Made by a program: the position numbers and the translations under genes | Shown here: piece by piece, positions 42,425 to 60,800 of the stretch | Layout: each line of letters begins with the position of its first letter | Numbering within the stretch: position 1 is the first letter of the stretch | Notes under the pieces: model-generated | Seen by the model: the letters and a program-made list of their open reading frames with translations, nothing else | Database searches by the model: none | Told to the model about the DNA's origin: nothing | NCBI GenBank assembly: GCA_002269645.1 | Contig: NIVC01000717.1 | Span: 326,822 to 390,821, forward strand | DNA length: 64,000 nucleotides | Reading direction: 5' to 3' | Source of the DNA: Macrostomum lignano | Taxonomy: Eukaryota

Positions 42425-43337
42425 TGTAGAGAGTTATTAGACCATACCGTAATGCTCTACTTAAAGTAATATTCTAAGGAAGTCAATTTCTTTCAAAATG
42501 AGTCATATCTATTTTAGGAATCACGCGCAAACAGAATGATTTAGAACCCTACATTGTTTGATCAAGGAACCGGATTTCAACAGCTGTATTTGTTTAACTC
42601 CATATATGGTAATGCTCAAACATGCATGACCGCTTAATCAAACATTTTTGACCTAAGTAAATACCCAATCCCAAACCGGTTTTTCTCCAAAATTTTGCTA
42701 TAAATATAAGTGAAAATTCAAGTCAAAAATTCAGACTCGGAGCGGTCTCTAAGAAGACACCGAAGAAATAAGAAGACCAATCTCTGAGGGACCATCCCTG
42801 TCCAATTGGTAAGCGTTTACCCGATTTAGTTAATTGTTAATAGCGCTAATAAAGTGATTGATTGAGTATACGAGAGCAGTTCATTGTCGATACATTTGAG
42901 AAAGGCCTCCTTGTTTCCTAGGATATTCCTAGAGGATTTATTGATTTAATTGAGTTATCCGTTACGTTTCGGACGTAACGAAGAAGCCGCCCTTCAGGAG
43001 GACCTATCACAGAAAATTAGAGAATTCAATTGTTCATTAGGGCGCAAGTTCTATTGTGAATTCCGAGCTCGAGGACCGTTAAGAAGTTCTGATTCGCTCT
43101 CGTTTGGTCGACCCACAGATAAAGGACACCAAAGAAAAACAGTGGTTCACCGGAACCGGTCGCCGTAACCGCTCAGCAAGCTTGCTATCCCGACGCGCCA
43201 CAGAACTCCACCGGCTGCCGACCCCAAGAGGATCCGCTGAAGTAAGTTATTTGAACTGATAAATACCTAGGCACTTGTTCCCCCGTGTCTAGAAGTGGGA
43301 GTTTTTGAGTGACTGATCACCACTCTTAAACTCTTCA
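42425..43337 (+). repeat. 5' LTR (913 bp)
   Basis: TGTAGA...CTTCA; TATAAATA at 42699, AATAAA at 42848; differs from the 3' LTR by 2 substitutions and one 5-nt indel on manual comparison. Confidence 0.97.
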
Positions 43338-43339
43338 AC

Positions 43340-43356
43340 TGGTGATCTCGCCCAGG
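43340..43356 (+). promoter_or_regulatory. Primer-binding site (tRNA not assigned)
   Basis: TGGTGATCTCGCCCAGG starts 2 nt after the 5' LTR. Confidence 0.75.
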
Positions 43357-43703
43357 CTCAAGCGCTACCAGGCTAGATCGCTGAAAGTACTTTGACACAA
43401 GTCCTTTGCGCAAATTTTTCTGAACTTTTTACCGAACCGCCATTGTTTGCATAGAGACCCTTTGATTCTTCGTGCACCGTTTTATACTTTTGTTAAATTT
43501 GCGAATATCCTATCTCAATTTCTTTCTTTGGTAAAGGCAACACAGAATTTTTTTTGCCCCCGTGTCCATTTTCCTTTCTTCCTTTAAGTAAATAAGAGCT
43601 TGCACACACACACAACACTTGTTCGCCACTTTGAAAGTCCAATCTGGAAAATCCTTTGGAAATTGATCCAGATCTGGTCCTCTTGCCGTTCCCATTTGAA
43701 AAT

Positions 43704-44600
43704 ATGGCTCGAAGAAACCCTACAGTGCATCGCGATGTCAAGGAAACTGTTGGAATGTATACCATGGATAAAGATTTTAACACCTTCATTGAACACTTCG
43801 ACCTTGTAACTCGCGAATACGGACTACAAAATCCAGAAAAGGCACTTCTTCTTCCTCCACTGTTAGAAGGTACTGCTCGAGAAATTTATGGCAAACTAAA
43901 TGCCGCCGCACAGCAAGACTATCATACTTTAGTTACACAACTGAGAGCACAATTCGCCAGATGTGGAACCAATCGATCTGTGCTTCTACACAAACTTCAT
44001 AATCGAAAAATGAGTCCGACGGAATCCTTCCTTACTTTCGTCGATGACGTCCGCAAAATTATTAAAGCGTTGCACCAGCCACCACCACCGAACCCAGGAG
44101 CTCAGCCTATCGGACCAGCAGAACTAGCTGCACGAGAAAGACAACGCCTTGCTGACCAAGAACAAAGCCTAATCCTCCATGTCATTAATAATGCTCAACC
44201 TTCGCTGCGAGACAGGTTGTTAAGAGAAACCATTGAGACAGAGGAACAATTAATTCGTTGCGGCATGCAATGGGAAGCAAGTGCCCCACTCCTGACTTCT
44301 CGTAGTAGTGATACGACACAATTGGGAGAACAATTGAGCAAACTCATGCAGCAGTACCAAACTTCTGCAATCATGCCACAGCGACAGAGATACGCTCCGC
44401 CACCCACTTGTTACACCTGTGGAAGAATTGGTCATTACGCCAGAGACTGCCGATCACGTGGCAATCCAAGACAATATAATGACAACAGAAGAAAAAATTG
44501 GACTCGTCCTCAAAATCGCAATTGGAACCCACCACAGAATAGACAAGGAAATGCCTTGGTACCTTATCGACAACAAAGAAATCCTCCTCCTCCAAGACAG
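43704..44600 (+). CDS. gag: Gag region: capsid-like domain and CCHC nucleocapsid knuckle
   Basis: FIEHFDLV..LLEGTAREIYGKL..LRAQF capsid pattern; CYTCGRIGHYARDC at 44409-44450; basic R/N/Q-rich tail. Confidence 0.9.
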
Positions 44601-47600
44601 CCTACTCAGGTCCGCAGACAATATGCTCAAGCTATTGAACCGGAATACACTCAAGTCATCGAACCAGAGTTTAAGATAGAGGATCTTATGCCGGATTTCA
44701 CAATCAATGTCCTTGAGGAGTTTGAAAGACGAAAAGATAGCACAAGCAGCGAAAGTAGCTGCATGATGGATTCTCTGTTTGAAGAAGATCCACCCATTCC
44801 TACCTCTTCTAAAGCAAGTCCAGTCTTCCGAGAAAACAAAAGACAACAACAAACTATTTCTAAGCAACAAAGCAATCTATTTAAAGTTCCGACGATCGAC
44901 AATCTTTCGGAAACTCACCGAGATGACAATTTCCAGGATCGTAAAGAAATGACAACACTTGAAGAAGACAGAGATCCAGCAACTTCTCAAAACATCTTTG
45001 AAGAAAGCGTTGACATGTTGCAGGTCCTAGTCGACGATATAGACCTGTCAGAAACACCTCCAACACAGGAACCAGACTATGAAAATATTGTCTCCCCTAG
45101 TCCAGTCCACGAAAAATGGAAACATGACAAGGCCACGAACACACAATCTAACCATTCGACAGATGAAAAGTTCGTACAGACGGAGGATGACACATATGTT
45201 TCAATGAACCTAGACTATGAAAGCGAATATGATGAACCGATAACAATAATGGAACCGGTTAACACTCCAACTGATGAGAATACAACTACACATCTTACCA
45301 ATATATCAAAATCAACCAACTTTATGCGTCCGATGTTGCAATCGCAGCCACCCACACCATTACCATGTTCCAACAAATGGCACTTTTCGACTCGCCTTAC
45401 TCCTCCGCCGTATCCTGAAGATAGTCATGACGAGATTGAAGACACTCCACCAGTACCAACAAGACGAAAGAAAAAACATCCGCTACTGCAATGCTTCCTC
45501 ACGATCTTGATGATGGCAATTGTTCCCACGGTACTGCCGTCTCCATCTCCAATGATCTGTCCCACTGATGGAGACATCCAGCCAGTCATTTACAAGATTC
45601 CTACGGAAATCAAATGCAGTTACTTTAAGACAAACCAAACCAAGCCACTACCACTAACTATTGAAATATACAAAGCAAATACAAAGAAGCATCGACAAAT
45701 GGGAATTGTGTGCTTCCGAGACAAGGATGAAATTGAAAAGGTTTGGCTGGTACAATGGAACCGAATCAGGTATTGGCAAACTTCGATGATGGTATCACAA
45801 GAAGAATGCTTTCGGTGGAATCAAACTCTGTTTTCCGAAGATGGTCAATTAAAACTTCATGAGACGTCCGCCAGCGGAGCACAGCTATTTCGCACAAAAA
45901 ATGTAGCCGATGGAAGATATGTCCATTATCATCAATCACGATGGCCTACATACTCAGTCTACAATAGCTACCTCATCCGAAATGTTTTATTCTACCACAA
46001 TCCATTTGACAACATGGAATCCTTACAGCTACCACTCGACCAGTGTCACTACAGCTCTGGATATTGTTCTACCCCTAACTACAACAAAGAAGAAGCTCAA
46101 AATTTACCCCTAGCACCGACTTATTTCCACGACTATCGATACCAAATTGAATACAGATCGGATTCCCGCTATGAGGAGCCTAGCCGAACCCGCAAATATT
46201 TCATTGCATGGGAAGTTAAAACTGAAATTGACTGCAAGCTACAAAAATATCACACTGTTAAAGGAAAATTGCTATCTAACACCTTCCTTGCCGACTCAGG
46301 AGATCTCGCTCTTACATTTCCTAAGCAACCAAGCTACACACACTTGAAATGTAAAGACAAGGACGAGCAACTAATCCTCTCCGACCAAGAAATACCAATC
46401 GTGCTTAAGGATATGGATAAGAATGTGTTCCTGAAAGTAGTAAATGGAACCTATCAGAGAAAAGATGTCATAGAACGACATAAGCGAGACCTACCTAAGC
46501 CTTCTCTAGTATCAGCACGACTTCTGGCAGCAAAACTAGCCGCCATGGAACATAAGCTACATAAGCAACTGAACTATCTGCATCGATCCATGGTCAAACT
46601 AACGTGCCGAATGCACGAAACCAGCCTGAATTACGCAAGACAGAACTATTATGTCAATCCCACGACGACCTTTAGGAAAATCACAGGTATTGAAGATGTC
46701 TTGGCAATTCCAGTTTACGGATATTTGCTAATCTATAAATGTACACCGATCCACCACTTTAACATCTTGCCATCAAATACTACAACAACCTGTTACGACA
46801 AACCTCGAATCGAGGCCTTTTACAAGGGAAGGCGCATCCGAGGATTTTTGGACACTGTCCACAATATTATTGTTGGAACCGCCATTCCAAGACCATGTAC
46901 AAACTCAGCCAACTATTTCAACTTAAACGATCTACTACACCAAATTTCGTCGGCAGGCGATATTAAAAACATTTCAAACTCGCAAGTTATTGTTGACGAG
47001 ACTTACGAAATGACGGACCTCGAAGTAAAATTCAATAAAACAACATACAAACCCTTTGGAGATATTAAACTAGACGAAATCACCCCAGGATGGACTATCA
47101 ACGATTTCCTGCAGGTTTTTATTTCACAACGGCAAGTCCTGACAAAACTGTTCACGGAACGACAGCAACGAGATGCAGATCGACTTACATCTCCAATAGG
47201 AATGACTATGCACAATGCCATTCAATCGTTTTGGTCAAATAGCTTTCTGGACCTAATACAAGGACGAGGAAGTCTATACCAAGGTTTTCTTTTCTCCAGT
47301 GCTTGCATTGTATGGATCTACTTAGTGCTACTCATTCTTGTCACAGTAGTCCGATGCGCAGCAAGAAATTGTCCACAAACTCGAGGCATCTTTCAAATAA
47401 TCAAACAAACAGACACTACCACTACAGGAGAAGAACCAACCGAAGAGACACCTATGCAAGTTCAAGAAATTCGACCAGAACCTACAGCACCAGAAACCTC
47501 AAACATTTATCCAAAAATCGATTTCAAGCCAGCAATTCCTCCGCCAATGTCACCTCCACTACCAATCGACCCAAAATGGCCAGCCAACTACGTCTGTACT

Positions 47601-50600
47601 CTCCAAGCCAATATGGGAAGAGCAATGGCTCAAGTACTTGTCAACAACAGGCCCAGCAAAGCACTGCTTGATTCTGGAAGCTCCATCACTGTCATTACTA
47701 AGAGACTATATGACAAACTACAACTTCGAATGCGACCATCATCCATCGCTGTTGCTGGAGCAGGTGGACATGCGCTTAATATCCTTGGACAAGTTGGGAT
47801 TATGCTCAAACTGGCAAATAAACAACTCCCTGTTCAAGCATTTGTTATCGACCACCTTCCAAGTCAAGATGTTATCATTGGAATCGACACATTCCAAAAA
47901 CTGAATTTACCCTTGACATTTGATTTTAACAAACAGACATTCAAACTAGACAACGTAGAACACCCATTGGTCAGCCAAGTTCATTTACAACCTAAAGTTC
48001 ATCTCCGACAAGATGTATTCATACAGCCTGAAAGCACTTGTTGGGTTAAGGCTTATCTAGTAAATAACGAAGACGTCGAAGAAGCTATGATTTTCGAACC
48101 AAGAAAGAAACTACTAACAACAAAGGAAGTTCTAATTCCAACGGCATTGGTCCTGATCACATCAGAAAAAGTTATTCCGGTACAGATTGTCAACCCTCAC
48201 CAACATCCCGTTAAGATCTACGCAGGAACATGCATGGGACACCTCAACACACAAGCCTCCGTCATGCTGATTCAACATACAAAAACAACAAGGATGTCAA
48301 AGCAACAATTCTTACAACAAATTGATCTCTCGCAAAGTCCCATTACGGAAGGACAAAAAACACAGGTCAGAGATCTACTTTGGAAGTACAATGACGTCTT
48401 TTGTCATCATGATTACGACATTGGTCGCGCTCGCGACATCAAGCAGAAAATCGAACTGCTACCCCACCAGGAACCCATCCAATGCAAACCATACCCAGTA
48501 GCAAAACATCTGCAACAACATTTTGATGAAATCATCGAAAAAATGCTCAAGGCCGGAATCATCAAACGAACAGTCTCAGCATATTCATCACCGTGTCTAC
48601 TAGTTGAAAAAAAGGAAACAAATGAAAGACGACTTGTCTGTGACTTTCGAGTCCTAAATAAATACATCCCCACAGATCAACAAAGTCTACCAAAGATTTC
48701 GGAACTATTGGCACGACTGAATACAGCTACTCTCTTCACCGTATTTGATCTACGACATGGCTTTTGGCAAATTGAACTTGAAGAAGAATCAAAACAATAT
48801 ACAGCATTCAAGACCTACAAGGGAGAAGTCTTTGCGTACCAGAGAAGCCCAATGGGGATTTCCAACTCCCCAGCGACCATGAGCCGCTTAACAGCCTACA
48901 TGCTAGCGGGATGTACGAATCTATTGCATTATGTGGACGATATTCTCGCTTTCGGCGATAATTTCGAACAACTACTGAGTGTCATGGAACAAGCTCTCTT
49001 TCTACTTCAGAAACAAGGACTAAAACTACAACCTACAAAATGTAAATTCTGCAGAGATTCAGTCCGATATCTGGGACATCATGTTTCAGCAAGAGGAATT
49101 TCACCCGACCCTAATAATGTCGAAAAGGTCAAGAAGTTCCCCAAGCCTACAACACTTACAAAACTACAATCATTCCTTGGATTAGCACAGTACTTCCGAA
49201 AATTCTTACCAAACTTCGCGCAAACTGCAAAGCCATTATATGAGTTGTTGAAGTTTCCCAAATGGAAGGAAGAAAATTGGAAAACGGAACAGCAAAACAG
49301 TTTTGATAAAATTAAACAGCAACTAACCAGCGACGCTCTGCTCAAACACCCAGACTTTCAAAAGCCGTTTATTATCGAAACCGATGCATCAGGAAGTGGT
49401 TTAGGAGCTGTACTACTTCAACAAACAGATCAGAAAAAGGAAAAACCAATTGCCTTTATCAGCCGAGCCCTGCGTCCAAATGAAACAAAATGGTCCGCCA
49501 CCGAACGTGAATTACTAGCGATTTTATTCGCTCTACGACAGTTTCATTACTACATCTACGGATCACCGCTACCAACCATCATCCGCACAGACCACGCACC
49601 GCTGACTCATGTTGTCAAAACAAAAGGACAAACGAATAACAGACTTATCCGGATGGTCCTCAAAATTCAGGACTATAACTTTCATCTCGTCTATAAACCA
49701 GGACCTACAAACAAGGCCGCGGATGCGCTATCAAGAGCATATGAAGTCAATGCTGTCCACCCCATTCCAACCATGACGGATCTACTGAAAGCGCAACAAG
49801 AAGATAATTTCTACAAAGCTGTATACGAAGACACAGAAGAAATGCAAAAACCGCTCACCAAGATCGAAAAGAAATTTTTACGGAAACAAGGCAATAATCT
49901 CATCTTCAAAGAACTAGCACTTTACTGGCTGCACAATAATACCCCAAGATTGTACCTACCATACAACTATCGCGCCGCAATCCTACATGAACTACACGAC
50001 ACACCCCTAGCCGGACATTTATCCGCCAAGAAAACAATCCACAGAATAGCCCAGTTCTATTTCTGGCCAACAATGAATGCAGACATCCGCAACTACTGCC
50101 TACAATGCCACTCATGTGCTTCAACAAAGACTGGAAGAAGACAAAAACCAGAACTTCAATCCGTACCAAAGACAACCACATGGGACATTGTATCACTTGA
50201 TATTACCGGACCACTACCGCCAGCTCGACAACATGCTATCGATTACACTTACATTCTTACCGCATTAGACGTGTTCTCTAAATTTGCTGTTGCCATTCCA
50301 CTGCCTGACATTACAGCCACTACAGTTGCAATGGCCTTCTACAATGAAATTATCTGCAAATACGGAACTCCAAAGACACTAACCTCCGACAATGGTACAC
50401 AATTTACGTCGCAACTATTCCAACAGGCGGCTAAATTACTAAATATCCAACAAATTTTCACCTCCACCTACAATCCAAAAGCTAACCTAGTAGAACGATT
50501 CCATAGAAATCTATACGAAATGTTGACACACTTCGTCTATAAGCAACCTGAAGATTGGATCATATACCTGCAGTCAGTGACAATCGCCTACAACAGTGCA

Positions 50601-51146
50601 GTACACCGTTCAACAGAGAACACACCGTTTTTCCTTATGTTCTCTCGAGACTTTCAGCCACCAAGCCTACTAGTTCAAAAACTATTACCTTCTCAGTACG
50701 TGGAAACGCCAACAACACTACAAAAGTTTACTTCGCAGCTACACCTGGCATGGCAAATCGCGAAACACAATTTAGAAAATCAACAGGCAGTAGTCACCAC
50801 CAGCAATCATACATCTACTCTACAAGTCGGAGACATCGTTTACCTACATTACCCTGCGCAACATACACATAAACACGCACTTAAATACAAAGGACCATTC
50901 CGAGTAACGGCATTGGTATCGGCAACAACGGCACGCCTCGCTAATATCCAGGATCCACATCAACCTCAGTTCTATGTTCACATTCAACGTCTAAAACGTA
51001 TCACTAACGACACTACATTCCTCCCAGACCTACAAAATCCAGACCACACAAAAACAACAAATAAACACATTGCCACTGCACACGCCGAAACACAAACAAC
51101 AAACGCACCACCTGTCGGTCATACGTACAACCTAAGACCTCGTTAA
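43704..51146 (+). CDS. gag-env-pol: Single Gag-Env-Pol polyprotein, about 2480 aa from the first ATG
   Basis: One open frame with no stop or frameshift (ORF track 43656-51146; ATG at 43704). Confidence 0.95.
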   Translation: MARRNPTVHRDVKETVGMYTMDKDFNTFIEHFDLVTREYGLQNPEKALLLPPLLEGTAREIYGKLNAAAQQDYHTLVTQLRAQFARCGTNRSVLLHKLHNRKMSPTESFLTFVDDVRKIIKALHQPPPPNPGAQPIGPAELAARERQRLADQEQSLILHVINNAQPSLRDRLLRETIETEEQLIRCGMQWEASAPLLTSRSSDTTQLGEQLSKLMQQYQTSAIMPQRQRYAPPPTCYTCGRIGHYARDCRSRGNPRQYNDNRRKNWTRPQNRNWNPPQNRQGNALVPYRQQRNPPPPRQPTQVRRQYAQAIEPEYTQVIEPEFKIEDLMPDFTINVLEEFERRKDSTSSESSCMMDSLFEEDPPIPTSSKASPVFRENKRQQQTISKQQSNLFKVPTIDNLSETHRDDNFQDRKEMTTLEEDRDPATSQNIFEESVDMLQVLVDDIDLSETPPTQEPDYENIVSPSPVHEKWKHDKATNTQSNHSTDEKFVQTEDDTYVSMNLDYESEYDEPITIMEPVNTPTDENTTTHLTNISKSTNFMRPMLQSQPPTPLPCSNKWHFSTRLTPPPYPEDSHDEIEDTPPVPTRRKKKHPLLQCFLTILMMAIVPTVLPSPSPMICPTDGDIQPVIYKIPTEIKCSYFKTNQTKPLPLTIEIYKANTKKHRQMGIVCFRDKDEIEKVWLVQWNRIRYWQTSMMVSQEECFRWNQTLFSEDGQLKLHETSASGAQLFRTKNVADGRYVHYHQSRWPTYSVYNSYLIRNVLFYHNPFDNMESLQLPLDQCHYSSGYCSTPNYNKEEAQNLPLAPTYFHDYRYQIEYRSDSRYEEPSRTRKYFIAWEVKTEIDCKLQKYHTVKGKLLSNTFLADSGDLALTFPKQPSYTHLKCKDKDEQLILSDQEIPIVLKDMDKNVFLKVVNGTYQRKDVIERHKRDLPKPSLVSARLLAAKLAAMEHKLHKQLNYLHRSMVKLTCRMHETSLNYARQNYYVNPTTTFRKITGIEDVLAIPVYGYLLIYKCTPIHHFNILPSNTTTTCYDKPRIEAFYKGRRIRGFLDTVHNIIVGTAIPRPCTNSANYFNLNDLLHQISSAGDIKNISNSQVIVDETYEMTDLEVKFNKTTYKPFGDIKLDEITPGWTINDFLQVFISQRQVLTKLFTERQQRDADRLTSPIGMTMHNAIQSFWSNSFLDLIQGRGSLYQGFLFSSACIVWIYLVLLILVTVVRCAARNCPQTRGIFQIIKQTDTTTTGEEPTEETPMQVQEIRPEPTAPETSNIYPKIDFKPAIPPPMSPPLPIDPKWPANYVCTLQANMGRAMAQVLVNNRPSKALLDSGSSITVITKRLYDKLQLRMRPSSIAVAGAGGHALNILGQVGIMLKLANKQLPVQAFVIDHLPSQDVIIGIDTFQKLNLPLTFDFNKQTFKLDNVEHPLVSQVHLQPKVHLRQDVFIQPESTCWVKAYLVNNEDVEEAMIFEPRKKLLTTKEVLIPTALVLITSEKVIPVQIVNPHQHPVKIYAGTCMGHLNTQASVMLIQHTKTTRMSKQQFLQQIDLSQSPITEGQKTQVRDLLWKYNDVFCHHDYDIGRARDIKQKIELLPHQEPIQCKPYPVAKHLQQHFDEIIEKMLKAGIIKRTVSAYSSPCLLVEKKETNERRLVCDFRVLNKYIPTDQQSLPKISELLARLNTATLFTVFDLRHGFWQIELEEESKQYTAFKTYKGEVFAYQRSPMGISNSPATMSRLTAYMLAGCTNLLHYVDDILAFGDNFEQLLSVMEQALFLLQKQGLKLQPTKCKFCRDSVRYLGHHVSARGISPDPNNVEKVKKFPKPTTLTKLQSFLGLAQYFRKFLPNFAQTAKPLYELLKFPKWKEENWKTEQQNSFDKIKQQLTSDALLKHPDFQKPFIIETDASGSGLGAVLLQQTDQKKEKPIAFISRALRPNETKWSATERELLAILFALRQFHYYIYGSPLPTIIRTDHAPLTHVVKTKGQTNNRLIRMVLKIQDYNFHLVYKPGPTNKAADALSRAYEVNAVHPIPTMTDLLKAQQEDNFYKAVYEDTEEMQKPLTKIEKKFLRKQGNNLIFKELALYWLHNNTPRLYLPYNYRAAILHELHDTPLAGHLSAKKTIHRIAQFYFWPTMNADIRNYCLQCHSCASTKTGRRQKPELQSVPKTTTWDIVSLDITGPLPPARQHAIDYTYILTALDVFSKFAVAIPLPDITATTVAMAFYNEIICKYGTPKTLTSDNGTQFTSQLFQQAAKLLNIQQIFTSTYNPKANLVERFHRNLYEMLTHFVYKQPEDWIIYLQSVTIAYNSAVHRSTENTPFFLMFSRDFQPPSLLVQKLLPSQYVETPTTLQKFTSQLHLAWQIAKHNLENQQAVVTTSNHTSTLQVGDIVYLHYPAQHTHKHALKYKGPFRVTALVSATTARLANIQDPHQPQFYVHIQRLKRITNDTTFLPDLQNPDHTKTTNKHIATAHAETQTTNAPPVGHTYNLRPR
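45480..47360 (+). CDS. env: Env-like class III fusion glycoprotein (herpes gB/chuvirus G-like) embedded in the polyprotein
   Basis: Signal-like stretch after RRKKK; 12 ectodomain Cys; 6 N-glycan sequons; RHKR furin site at 46476-46487; heptad helix; VNPTTTFRKITGIEDVLAIPVYGYLLIYKCTPI resembles the gB NP...GDV...C motif; TM at 47286-47351. Confidence 0.8.
47600..51146 (+). CDS. pol: Pol region: aspartic protease, RT, RNase H, integrase
   Basis: LLDSG at 47664; RLVCDFR, DLRHGFWQI, YVDD at 48930; ETDASG, ERELLA, TDHAPL; H-H-C-C zinc finger, LDITGP, SDNGTQF, VERFH. Confidence 0.97.
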
Positions 51147-51277
51147 ATTATTCGCTTCATGTCCCCGTGTAGTGACCGGGATAAAGAATAGCACTACAGC
51201 TTCCTCAAGCTTGTCGTAAGAGGCGACTAAATCCTTGTTTTCCTACAAACGCTCACACAACTACGACAAACACGACA

Positions 51278-51928
51278 ATGGATTGTCCTATCTGTCTCGG
51301 AGAATTTTCATGTAAACTACCTTGTATATGTGTCAATAGACACCAGGTGTGTGGTTCTTGCTTAAGCCTTGCACATTACAAAAAACCTTTAAAAAATTGC
51401 CCTATGTGTCGAGGTAATCTCCGTCAATGCATGATATGCAACTCCTGGCGCACTGAACAATATTGCTTAAATCAACATTTTATGTGCACACAATGTATTA
51501 AGAAGCTTGCTTATCGCTCCATTTGTCAGTGTCCTATATGCGATGCCACCCCTTTACCTAAAGTTAACAACAAACTTGCATGCATTCAAGCGGACTACAA
51601 CCTACAGCTTCACCCATTCACTTATGCTCTTTTTCCATCACATGCTATAATTATCCGCCTCAGATCATGGCCCATACCACGTGCTGCTCATAAAACACGT
51701 AAATACCTCGTTCGCTATTCCTCTTCCTACGGTTCTAGACTCCGGCAATTATCTCCACAAGAAATTGAACATAAGCTGTTTAAAATTGTTAACGATATGA
51801 ATTTTCACCCATGCCCCATCCTCTGTACAACTCTACCTGCACTCATTCTGCGTAATGAGGACTTGTCTTATATATTACCACCCCAAGAATCATATGACTA
51901 TAATAGTTCCGCTTCAGAAATTGATTAA
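51278..51928 (+). CDS. Accessory ORF A: tandem RING-HC fingers and an unknown C-terminal domain (216 aa)
   Basis: C-x2-C-x11-C-x3-H-x2-C-x2-C-x12-C-x2-C, followed immediately by CMIC..CLNQHFMCTQC..CPIC. Confidence 0.8.
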   Translation: MDCPICLGEFSCKLPCICVNRHQVCGSCLSLAHYKKPLKNCPMCRGNLRQCMICNSWRTEQYCLNQHFMCTQCIKKLAYRSICQCPICDATPLPKVNNKLACIQADYNLQLHPFTYALFPSHAIIIRLRSWPIPRAAHKTRKYLVRYSSSYGSRLRQLSPQEIEHKLFKIVNDMNFHPCPILCTTLPALILRNEDLSYILPPQESYDYNSSASEID

Positions 51929-52001
51929 AATACCATGCACCCACAGATATTGCAACCATTCTTGCACAGATATTACTTATCACATTGACCATTTTTCAGA
52001 C

Positions 52002-52601
52002 ATGGATAGCGACGAGTGCATTGTTTGTTATGAAGACACTGAACAGTATGTCTACTGTCAGCATGGGCATAAGTTCTGCTATAACTGCTGCACAACGGAT
52101 AGAATAGACAAATGCCCGCTATGCCGCGCACCACCTACCCTGTGCCAGGTATGCAATACAACACCGCAACAAAGGATGTGCGCCAACGGACACTGGGTCT
52201 GCCGAGATTGTGCTCTAAAAATTCGGTGCCGCGACTATAAGCATTGCATAACTTGTGCAGCGCCAATATCTAAGGAAATTTACGCCGGAACAACAACATT
52301 ACCAAAGATCCAACTTACAAAGGAGACCATGGACAGTATGACGGCCAAGGAACTAGCAACAGCTATACGAACCTGGCCAATACCATTCAACAAGAGAGAC
52401 CATTTGGAATATCTTTTTGACTTGGTACGTCAATATGCGGCGCATCCAATAAATACTACGAGTACAACTGAAGAGATCTACCTGGAATTCCTCAACGCCA
52501 CCGAATCAACACAATTTACGCCGATACAGCACTTACTGTGGCCACTCGCGAGATTGACAACCAAAGTAAACGATATACTGAATAATACGCTTTCCTATTA
52601 A
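52002..52601 (+). CDS. Accessory ORF B: paralogous tandem RING-HC protein (199 aa from ATG 52002)
   Basis: CIVC..CQHGHKFCYNC..CPLC, then CQVC..CANGHWVCRDC..CITC; shares R-x-WPIP with ORF A. Confidence 0.8.
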   Translation: MDSDECIVCYEDTEQYVYCQHGHKFCYNCCTTDRIDKCPLCRAPPTLCQVCNTTPQQRMCANGHWVCRDCALKIRCRDYKHCITCAAPISKEIYAGTTTLPKIQLTKETMDSMTAKELATAIRTWPIPFNKRDHLEYLFDLVRQYAAHPINTTSTTEEIYLEFLNATESTQFTPIQHLLWPLARLTTKVNDILNNTLSY

Positions 52602-52780
52602 CAATAACAATGCATCCTGCCAAGCAACACAATAACAATGTGACCTACCTATCTACCTATCCATCTACTATACTACTACTGGTTCAAAATTTCTAATCCT
52701 TAAATACATTTTCATGTTTATTAGAAGATAAAACCCCACTTCACCGCTTTAACTTTAAAATTCGGGACGAATTTTTCGTG

Positions 52781-52791
52781 AAAAGGGGAGA
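52781..52791 (+). promoter_or_regulatory. Polypurine tract
   Basis: AAAAGGGGAGA, 3 nt before the 3' LTR. Confidence 0.9.
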
Positions 52792-52794
52792 TAT

Positions 52795-53712
52795 TGTAGA
52801 GAGTTATTAGACCATACCGTAATGCTCTACTTAAAGTAATATTCTAAGGAAGTCAATTTCTTTCAAAATGAGTCATATCTATTTTAGGAATCACGCGCAA
52901 ACAGAATGATTTAGAACCCTACATTGTTTGATCAAGGAACCGGATTTCAACAGCTGTATTTGTTTAACTCCATATATGGTAATGCTCAAACATGCATGAC
53001 CGCTTAATCAAACATTTTTGACCTAAGTAAATACCCAATCCCAAACCGGTTTTTCTCCAAAATTTTGCTATAAATATAAGTGAAAATTCAAGTCAAAAAT
53101 TCAGACTCGGAGCGGTCTCTAAGAAGACACCGAAGAAATAAGAAGACCAATCTCTGAGGGACCATCCCTGTCCAATTGGTAAGCGTTTACCCGATTTACT
53201 TAATTGTTAATAGCGCTAATAAAGTGATTGATTGAGTATACGAGAGCAGTTCATTGTCGATACATTTGAGAAAGGCCTCCTTGTTTCCTAGGATATTCCT
53301 AGAGGATTTATTGATTTAATTGAGTTATCCGTTACGTTTCGGACGTAACGAAGAAGCCGCCCTTCAGGAGGACCTATCACAGAAAATTAGAGAATTCAAT
53401 TGTTCATTAGGGCGCACGTTCTATTGTGAATTCCGAGCTCGAGGACCGTTAAGAAGTTCTGATTCGCTCTCGTTTGGTCGACCCACAGATAAAGTTAAGG
53501 ACACCAAAGAAAAACAGTGGTTCACCGGAACCGGTCGCCGTAACCGCTCAGCAAGCTTGCTATCCCGACGCGCCACAGAACTCCACCGGCTGCCGACCCC
53601 AAGAGGATCCGCTGAAGTAAGTTATTTGAACTGATAAATACCTAGGCACTTGTTCCCCCGTGTCTAGAAGTGGGAGTTTTTGAGTGACTGATCACCACTC
53701 TTAAACTCTTCA
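52795..53712 (+). repeat. 3' LTR (918 bp)
   Basis: Near-identical to 42425-43337 plus a 5-nt insertion near 53494. Confidence 0.97.
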
Positions 53713-57823: not shown

Positions 57824-60800
57824 TCAGTGCTGCTTATTCTTCAATAGCTGTTTCAATCTTTGATGCTCCCTAGGCTCCAGAAAGCCGACTAGCACCCTAT
57901 CCATCACACGGATCGGGTGCTTCCGATAGCCGAATACTCGAACCCAATCAGACGGCACGTGTCTCACAGGTGGATTATTCTGTATCCGCTTGCTCCGCCT
58001 CACAGCCGCAGTAGCATTAGTGGCATTCGACAGTTCACTAGCCGACGCTAGACGATATTCGTCAACTTCGCTAGTTAACAATTTTACTTGTCTAAGCGTT
58101 GACATATCGAATTCCGTTAGGCCTTGCTCGACTGTGAAAAAATTGAAGCAATCCAACGGTAGCAGATTTGGCAACAGACTGACGCGCTCTACTTTGGCTT
58201 CTTTAGTAAGAAAATCGTGCGGATCGTAAAAGTATGAAGTTGCACTGAACTCGTTAGCGCTCTCTAGATCTTCAAAATTATCAAAAACTGCCGCCTTGTT
58301 TAGACTAGACAAGTCAGACTGAGTCTGGGTGTCCGCGTCGCTGCAGCTTAGAGCTTCCGTTGCTTGGTTGACAGATTGAATTTCCTGTCGAGATTCTGCA
58401 ACATCTTCAACTTGATGCTCTTGAAGTGTCCGTACTTCATCTGGTTCATGTTGATCGTAAACTAACGGCGACGGAGCTGGAACTGACACCCGTCTGGAAA
58501 CTACTTTATCCAGTTGATGTTCGTCTTCATCAACATCCAAAATCGGAGATGGAGGCGCAACAGATCGAATATATAACTGTCTAACGGATGACTGATCCAT
58601 AGTTTCCTCCGGTGCCACTGTATGAAAGATGTTGGACTCGTGCCAAGACGATAAATATTGACAACGCATAGCGGTATCGTCCACAGTGAATTCGGTTTCA
58701 GTCAGATAAGACTTAGCGACGGTGAGACTGGTACCTGTCGCTCTTGCTCTCTGACGCTGACGAACAATCGATGGCAACAATTCGCGTCTAATAGAACTAT
58801 TGTCAATGGTAGCCTGCGACACTGTCGCGTACATATTCGACGCGTGTACAGAGTCAATGTATTGTCGACGAATGCTAGAATCATTGACAGTTACTAGGCA
58901 CTCGGTTGCGTAGAGATTAGACGATTGCAAATCTGGTTGCGATTGGCTTTTGTAACTTGACACACCGTCGCACTGGATACCTTCCTCGACAAGCTCCACT
59001 GACCGTGGATTAGATGAACTAATAATCGAACGAGGAACCATTGCAACTTTGTGAGGATCCGAGGACGCGGAAGCGTACCCAGTGGTGGTCGCACTGTCGC
59101 AAGACGTTGCTACGGGCAAAGTTGACACCACCGCTACAGCTGGCTGACAACGCATCGGACTCAACGAATGCTGAGACACCGAATGGACAACAGAACAAGT
59201 GCTAGAACCGGCTTCAACAACATTAGCAAAATTCACAGCTTGACTACTTCTGACCTGTGCAGCATTGTTGATTTTAGCAGGAGAAGACGTTCGACAATCT
59301 TCTAGCTTCACACCTGCAGGCTGATCAGTGATAAATTGAGTTGCAGTTACTGCAGTTTTTCCCTCGGCAACCAAATCAGCTTTAAAATTTTGACTGTCAA
59401 TTCCAGTTTGACTGTGCAGTGCTTCAGTGTTTGACTGTTGAATAATGGTGAACTCCGGCTGCATACATGGCAAGGTTTTATCATCGAGTCCAGACGATGT
59501 AACGAATGAAGATTTAGCGCGTTTAATCTTATCGCGATTGCTGGACTGGGATATCCTTGATGTGGAGTCACTGGATTGATAATCTGGTTTCTGAAGTAGC
59601 TTATCAATTACAGATGAAGAACTTTGCTGCCAAATCGATTCAGCATGTTGTGACGCTGCTGAGCCTAGAGACTTTACGCGATGGATGCTGCGGCCAAGAG
59701 AACAACCTACTTCAAGATTTTCAACCCTGGAATTTTTTAGCTGAAGCGTTTCAGAGGCCGAATTCCTGCGCAAAAGACTACGTCTGATAGAATTGGCAGG
59801 TTGCAGGCTCAGTCGAGTCGAGTCACTGATTTGCGATGTTTCGGGTTGCTGGCTCAGTTCGATTGCATCGAGATTCTGCGATCTGTCATGCGTACGACTT
59901 TTCAGATGACGACTTCCACAGCCAAGCTGAGATTCGTTCGAATTATGACTTTTATTAGTCATCTCAAGCCTTTCGGGTTGCAGACTCTGTTAGTGAGTTG
60001 CTGTGTTGAGATCTCACCGGTAGCAGACTCGGTTGGCTTGACACACTAAGCTGAGATCTCTTTGGTTGCAGACTCGGTCGTCCTGACTCATTAAGCTGAG
60101 ATCTCTCTGGTTGCAGATTCGGTCGGTTTGACTCACCAAGATGAGATATCTCTGGTTGCAGACTCGGTCGGTTTGACTCATTAAGCTGAGATCTCTCTGG
60201 TTGCAGACTCGGTCGGTTTGACTCACTAAGCTGAGATCTCACCGGTAGCAGACTCGGTCGTCCTGACTCACTAAGCTGAGATCTGTCTGGTTGCAGACTC
60301 GGTCGGTTTGACTCATTAAGCTGAGATCTCTCTGGTTGCAGACTCGGTCGTCCTGACTCACTAATCTGAGATCTCTCTGGCTGCAGACCCGGCCGTTGTG
60401 AGTCACCCATTTGAGAACGCTCCTGTTTCAGACTCAGTCGCTTTGAGTCTTCGAGCTGAGATCTGTTCGGTTGCAGATTCAGTCGATTTGAGTCTCCAAG
60501 CTGAGATCTGTCTGGTTGCAGACTCAGCTGAATTGAATCACCAAGCTGAGATGCCTCTGGTTGTAGACTCAGTTGAATTGAGTCGCAAAACTGAGATCTG
60601 TCTGGTTGCAGACCCGGCCGTTGTGAGTCACACATTTGAGAACTCTCCTGTTTAAGACTTAGTCGGTTTGAGTCTTTATGCTGAGATCTCTCTGGTTGCA
60701 GACTCGATCGTCTTGACTCACTAAGTTGAGTTTCTTCTGGTTGCAGACTCAGTCGGTTAGAATCTTCGTGCTGAGATCTGTCACGTTGCAGACTCGGCCG

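Follow-up and report, generated by a model that had tools for sequence, protein, structure and literature searches.

A variable tandem-RING gene cassette in an env-carrying Ty3/Gypsy element of Macrostomum lignano

Behind the integrase of a retrotransposon in the flatworm Macrostomum lignano lie two genes, each coding for a protein with two adjacent RING fingers. They belong to a cassette that varies from element to element and that, in an otherwise known type of env-carrying Gypsy element, is real, conserved and apparently undescribed. The stretch of DNA analysed, here called the window, comprises 64,000 nucleotides (nt) of contig NIVC01000717.1 (assembly GCA_002269645.1, forward-strand positions 326,822 to 390,821). 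An earlier note on this DNA, made from its letters alone, had pointed to the two genes and proposed that they encode a captured, duplicated and diverged pair of ubiquitin ligases (E3s) acting as retroviral-style accessory proteins.

The two RING-RING genes and their predicted products

Two intact, intronless open reading frames (ORFs) lie on the + strand between the polyprotein stop (51146) and the polypurine tract (PPT), just where the note had placed them. ORF-A (51278..51928), of what is called below the A class, encodes 216 amino acids (aa), with RING1 at C3-C44, RING2 at C51-C88 and a C-terminal domain that contains a WP motif. ORF-B (52002..52601), of the non-A class, encodes 199 aa, with RING1 at C6-C41 (P39, R42), RING2 at C48-C85 and a predicted all-helical region at 107-197 (W125-P126). 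The two proteins are 24% identical (E 4e-13) and have in common the C-terminal motif R-[ST]-WPIP, noticed earlier as R-x-WPIP; judged by their sequences, they are paralogues. Each contains two back-to-back C3HC4 fingers with C-x3-H spacing, as had been claimed, and the full pattern of 16 zinc ligands was matched by none of 20000 shuffles of either protein. The further claim of a C-x-x-G-H spacing holds for ORF-B, which has CQHGH and CANGH, but not for ORF-A, which has CVNRH and CLNQH.

Pfam, a structural model and structure comparison all bear out the RING fold that the note had proposed. In ORF-B, zf-C3HC4_3 scores above its cut-off. Sina_RING (PF21362) is the commonest Pfam match of the family (22/26 members at E<=0.05); it reaches 22.1 bits in ORF-B, under the cut-off of 29.3, and is not matched by ORF-A, and some relatives from the genome search exceed the cut-off. 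The PDB sequences best matched by the family profile are nearly all E3 RINGs (RING1B, SIAH1, TRIM21). An AlphaFold model of ORF-B, built from a 26-row alignment, has a predicted local distance difference test score of 90.7 and a predicted template modelling score of 0.81, and consists of two RINGs followed by the helical domain (107-197). Many of the top Foldseek rows for this model are E3 RING domains (IDOL, BIRC7, cIAP2, RNF8), superposed with a root-mean-square deviation of about 2 A over 44-48 residues at E 0.1-1; no row reached E 0.001 or better. Each finger has the eight zinc ligands, the spacing and, in the model, the fold of a C3HC4 RING. The helical C-terminal domain gave no clear match in Pfam or in structure comparison.

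Conservation within the RINGs was counted in the 38 proteins that have all 16 ligands, among 57 distinct long ORFs (54 genomic and three Logan proteins); the other 19 stand outside these counts. RING1 has Pro after C7 in 37/38, Arg after C8 in 38/38, L/Y/F after C2 in 38/38 and I/V before C2 in 28/38, positions that we take to be the contacts with the ubiquitin-conjugating enzyme (E2) and the linchpin. RING2 has a hydrophobic residue at C6+4 in 31 of the 38 and R/K after C8 in none, and so lacks a linchpin.

The RING genes are under purifying selection. The ratio of nonsynonymous to synonymous divergence (dN/dS) was estimated by the Nei-Gojobori method among 38 genomic ORFs that differ in their DNA and retain the full 16 ligands; 49 of 703 pairs, which are not independent of one another, passed the thresholds (>=55% identity, dS 0.08-2). 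The median was 0.17 for A genes (18 pairs, 0.12-0.30) and 0.25 for non-A genes (31 pairs, 0.18-0.34). Taken by domain, A genes gave 0.14 for the RINGs and 0.21 for the C-terminal domain, and non-A genes 0.22 and 0.25. Comparison among copies, which the note had suggested as a check, gave values of 0.12-0.34, not values near 1.

The host element and its putative transcripts

The element that carries the two genes is a young Ty3/Gypsy element of the env-carrying (errantivirus) type, with gag, env and pol in a single frame, and it has the hallmarks of a Ty3/Gypsy LTR retrotransposon: long terminal repeats (LTRs), a primer binding site (PBS), a PPT, a target duplication and the order protease, reverse transcriptase (RT), RNase H, integrase. 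All of its features are on the + strand. The 5' LTR (42425..43337) has TG...CA ends, a TATA at 42699, a 310-nt intron (42809-43118) and a splice donor after 43241, and is followed by the PBS (43340..43351). The polyprotein of 2480 aa (43704..51146) comprises Gag (CCHC), an env-like glycoprotein, protease, RT, RNase H and integrase. Behind the RING genes come the PPT (52780..52791) and the 3' LTR (52795..53712), and then the target duplication, TATG, within a GA-rich microsatellite. Of 913 aligned bases, 911 are the same in the two LTRs, which further differ by one 5-nt indel. The env segment matches the fusion glycoprotein family PF24664 at E 3e-4 (19.4 bits, under the cut-off of 27); a signal-like stretch, a furin-like RHKR site and a hydrophobic segment were judged by eye. 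PPPY and PTAP, which we take to be late-domain motifs, are also present in the polyprotein. The sole AATAAA of the LTR (42848) lies 40 nt past the donor of the 310-nt intron, an arrangement that presumably resembles donor-mediated suppression of a 5' poly(A) site.

Transcripts were sought in four sequencing runs, three of them (from three studies) guessed to be RNA and one of unrecorded kind that behaves like DNA. GT..AG joints occur only in the three RNA-guessed runs; all three have the LTR intron spliced, and their contigs cover both ORF-A and ORF-B. A further joint, from 43241 to 52000, is found in run X6 and is absent from X16. It uses an acceptor at 51992..52001, so that the exon starts at 52000 and the ATG of ORF-B is 2 nt past the acceptor; the leader exons of this form contain no upstream ATG. 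At the 14 genomic ORF-B loci described below, the joined form does not occur. Of 16 distinct sequences upstream of non-A genes, 10 have YAG 0-2 nt ahead of the ATG, versus 10 of 177 other element ATGs and none of eight A genes. Production of ORF-B from a spliced subgenomic RNA, in which LTR leader exons are joined to an acceptor near the ATG, is thus supported, if thinly, and such a joint is the kind of behaviour expected of the accessory genes that the note had envisaged. A genes have a different arrangement: in 13/13 examined, a conserved YAG and hairpin motif lies 62-106 nt upstream. In the window this non-coding motif (51192..51228) consists of a candidate splice acceptor, whose AG ends at 51199, and then a short hairpin; no splice joint was seen there in the runs, and local folding is no better than that of shuffles (z -0.06). 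This conserved acceptor at 51199 is probably the one used by ORF-A.

Two deletion derivatives are also present in the RNA-guessed runs. One (44479/52555) is a mini-element whose LTRs are about 1.4 kb apart, and the other (46514/50931) is a 6.9-kb form in which gag, both RING genes and a portion of env remain.

A variable cassette confined to one element lineage

The genome contains at least 139 matches to ORF-B and at least 148 to ORF-A, the best 150 candidates having been scored for each. At the 14 loci nearly identical to ORF-B, the B gene is intact in 11 and the A gene in eight; the 11 that reach an LTR end have 10 different 3' flanks, and a derivative with an env-to-integrase deletion, which retains both RING genes, accounts for six of the 14. 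Genomic context was sampled in stretches of 20 contigs, 19 at diverged matches and one at a solo near-identical copy. These hold 50 RING-gene clusters, of which 22 have an integrase upstream and a PPT/LTR downstream, 22 a PPT/LTR only, four an integrase only and two neither, the last two being fragments amid broken elements. No host-like copy outside elements was seen among these clusters, which represent part of all matches. With 48 of the 50 in such a context, the family is confined in this genome, as far as examined, to one element lineage.

In a tree of 32 genomic ORFs and three Logan proteins, the A class, whose gene leads the cassette wherever it occurs, is split from the non-A class with support of 100/99, in agreement with the note's duplicated and diverged pair; by this sequence evidence the two classes are old. 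The non-A class falls into four or five subfamilies, whose deeper joins are unsure owing to long branches. One A subfamily (L038:9187-9855, L056:2175-2843, L135:554-928) starts with MGNALSK or MGNAQSR, likely a myristoylation signal, which persists in the truncated, high-copy form.

What the note had not foreseen is that the gene pair is not fixed: the second gene varies, and there are three-gene cassettes as well as copies with a truncated A gene only. A cassette consists of a single A-class gene followed by one or two exchangeable non-A genes; there are three genes in all on contig C391 and two on C282, C240, C669 and C1154. Elements on C583, C2129 and C262 are 94-100% identical to the window's in pol and 86-99% in ORF-A, but ORF-B and their second gene share only 32-33% identity. 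Two routes would explain such a swap: recombination, or reciprocal loss after descent from an ancestor with three genes (resembling the copy on C272). That the second gene is swapped or lost between nearly identical elements suggests that it serves alternative functions and not a fixed core role.

Beyond this lineage, the family profile found no match in the 3' regions of six of six more distant elements (integrase 33-43% identical), five of which have other, unrelated ORFs there. A distant Gypsy element on C505 (L148:1083-1493; integrase 36%) has, behind its integrase, an ORF with a DnaJ domain (PF00226, E 1e-13, HPD) and a second ORF, and its integrase score is common to 13 loci. Another env-carrying lineage (RT 39% to the window's; G000:C1405:266542-268698, L145, L146) has two other conserved 3' ORFs, of about 260 and 105-113 aa, the longer without a convincing Pfam match. 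Further unrelated 3' ORFs, 318 and 277 aa long, are found in distant elements on C2365 and C616 (L147, L149). Extra genes behind the integrase thus seem to be common among the Gypsy elements of this genome.

Relation to known systems and possible function

Searched exhaustively with a profile, 1.84 billion representatives yielded four matches under 1e-30: one UniRef gene model of M. lignano, nearly identical to family members in this genome, and three full-length Logan proteins. Two of the latter have top identities in the genome, over most of their length, of about 42% (P0005) and 30-33% (P0006); because these identities are low, both classes exist in other sources. The next-best outside matches are confined to the RINGs and are sina-like or tandem-RING proteins, and two outside proteins (P0011, P0016) have tandem C-x3-H RINGs as in the family. 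The family resembles SIAH/Sina in the C-x3-H of RING1, with G-H in 24/24 non-A members, but has two RINGs in place of one. Host sina frames and unrelated host C-x3-H RINGs score alike (22-28 bits, RING1 only), the C-terminal profile misses the host sina frames, and Pfam finds no SIAH zinc fingers or TRAF-like domain in the C-terminal domain. With that domain predicted to be all-helical and nothing in it resembling the SIAH substrate domain, the proteins are not members of SIAH, and the equal scores lend no support to a capture from it.

Herpesvirus ICP0, giant-virus RINGs and arenavirus Z are likewise virus-borne RING folds, and ICP0 and Z have one RING each. Z is myristoylated at Gly2, and one related A subfamily does have MGN-x-x-S; unlike Z, neither window ORF has Gly2, and each encodes two RINGs. 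No full-length viral homologue was found at E<=1e-3 in BFVD or in viral contigs. Viral Foldseek rows are weak (best E 7e-3), and the nearest Atlas clusters, Nucleocytoviricota RING/SAP proteins at 0.86, are a lead only.

The accessible text of Chary and Hayashi (PMC13524379) describes GAG-ENV-POL errantiviruses with an HSV/gB-type Env in Platyhelminthes, Nematoda and Bryozoa, among them Mlig_errantivirus_2; the M. lignano element listed there (10,591 bp, LTR 864) has the same gag-env-pol order as the window element and an identical PBS 12-mer. RING, accessory, zinc finger and ubiquitin do not occur in that main text as accessible. A cassette-deleted relative in the genome comes by arithmetic to about 10,620 bp, near the published length, which may be why the RING genes went unremarked; it differs from the window element, with its two full RING-RING genes, in belonging to another subfamily (integrase ~70-75% identical). 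According to the accessible text of PMC6431247, the giant planarian Gypsy element Burro/GYPSM1 has env in frame between gag and pol, and its cargo has annotations that relate to ubiquitination or apoptosis (AIR1 'RING Zn-finger', MATH, BIR, SUMO-like). Burro is thus also a flatworm Gypsy with ubiquitin-related cargo, but that cargo lies mostly inside or upstream of a polyprotein of 4,900-5,100 aa, and the same text describes for it neither stand-alone tandem-RING genes past the integrase nor an exchangeable paralogue cassette. The Cer1 element of C. elegans has an extra gene beyond gag, pol and env for an accessory protein, CERV, whose Cys-rich loop is not described as a RING in the accessible text of PMC10309623. 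Rotifer LTR elements, too, have genes beyond gag, pol and env; 'RING' and 'ubiquitin' are not mentioned in the accessible text of PMC5408684, nor RING in that of PMC12801592. In the literature searched, which did not extend to subscription papers or Repbase, neither stand-alone RING genes in LTR elements nor this cassette were found. The note's statement that Gypsy elements normally lack such genes calls for qualification, given the ubiquitin-related domains of Burro.

We give about an even chance to the reading that the ORFs are accessory genes for trans-acting E3 ligases that ubiquitinate host factors limiting the element. RING1 would bind and activate E2~ubiquitin, RING2, on the same chain, would brace RING1 as a structural partner, and the helical domain at the C-terminus, widely divergent between paralogues, would pick the substrate, for example a host silencing or antiviral factor on which the protein acts in trans. 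Viral RING ligases of the ICP0 type are a precedent. Action in trans would explain both the multiplication of cassette-less relatives and the expression of pol-deleted copies that keep the cassette. A fuller picture, in which the lineage has its own tandem-RING ligase family, made from spliced subgenomic RNAs and directing exchangeable helical domains against host defence, and in which cassette-less relatives free-ride, is offered tentatively and may well prove wrong. If true, it would be a retrotransposon counterpart of ICP0, Vif or Vpx that brings its own catalytic RING.

Several observations weigh against this E3 reading. Positive selection left no sign in the 49 pairs (dN/dS of the C-terminal domain <=0.38), so an arms race is not seen at the codon level. 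In RING1, C6+4 is A/S/G/D/E/Q/C in 38/38, not the bulky hydrophobic residue of many E3 RINGs, and the invariant Arg could be structural, packed onto RING2. The ORF-B joint comes from one contig of one RNA-guessed run, with 29 letters on its short side. The remaining points concern necessity. Among the ORF-A matches listed, outside C87, 23 cover only about the first 106 residues and 21 only about the first 74, a truncated sister subfamily that has multiplied to about 44 copies among those matches. The truncated loci adjoin integrases about 75% identical to the window's, a type that predominates among the integrase matches listed, and the non-A gene is gone in 8/8 inspected; three of these keep a 124-aa RING-RING ORF, two have a differently ended or shorter ORF, and three have no A ORF of at least 70 aa. 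Since such copies multiplied, the cassette is dispensable in cis, which fits a trans-acting accessory gene, and no less well one required just in certain tissues or for cell-to-cell transmission.

The proteins might instead be zinc-finger adaptors that catalyse nothing and serve the element's own cycle, for instance as a membrane-bound matrix protein or budding factor of the arenavirus Z kind, or as a regulator, in the manner of Rev or CERV, of splicing or of the export of unspliced genomic RNA. We consider this rather unlikely: Gly2 is absent from the window ORF-A, from C391-type A genes and from P0005, four or five exchangeable non-A subfamilies are less to be expected of a core step in the cycle, RING1 retains the Pro and Arg found in active E3s, and CERV, in the accessible text on it, has a different architecture. 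Active E3 ligases could also be directed at the element's own Gag or Env, in budding, Env traffic or turnover, rather than at host defence. The same RING evidence (PDB profile matches, Foldseek, residue counts) would apply, steady purifying selection with no positive selection suits a stable partner, PPPY and PTAP are present in the polyprotein, and the six distant elements lack a RING-RING match; nevertheless, this seems improbable, as second genes only 32-33% identical are hard to reconcile with gag, env and pol that are 94-100% identical. That the ORFs are neutral host passengers or copies of a host gene family is largely refuted and retains very little probability. Many copies are indeed broken or deleted, and most of the cassette is gone from one high-copy subfamily; against this stand the dN/dS values of all 49 pairs, the conserved acceptors, the splice joint, the element context of 48/50 clusters and the restriction of matches to host sina-type genes to RING1.

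By analogy with complex retroviruses, the cassette suggests that the element makes helper proteins to manipulate the host cell; the layout, with accessory genes fed by alternative acceptors, would be a complex-retrovirus-like one in a Ty3/Gypsy element. Counter-defence proteins are known from few animal retrotransposons, and the cassette makes it testable, in a worm with RNAi and transgenesis, whether retrotransposons actively fight silencing. Its substrates would reveal which host factors hold the env-carrying retroelements of flatworms in check, and a predicted rigid RING-RING unit joined to a helical domain of no recognised family would be of interest to ubiquitin biology.

Some minor features remain. 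Broken and intact copies of the lineage are densely nested at C272:359000-425000, C2121:1-66000 and C87:229000-280000, and such nests may be graveyards of elements that resemble piRNA clusters. In many host E2 genes (L110-L134), which occur in sets of about three near-identical loci, one open frame contains the entire UQ_con domain. Downstream of the element, the window contains a stop-free frame of 721 aa on the - strand (57824-59989).
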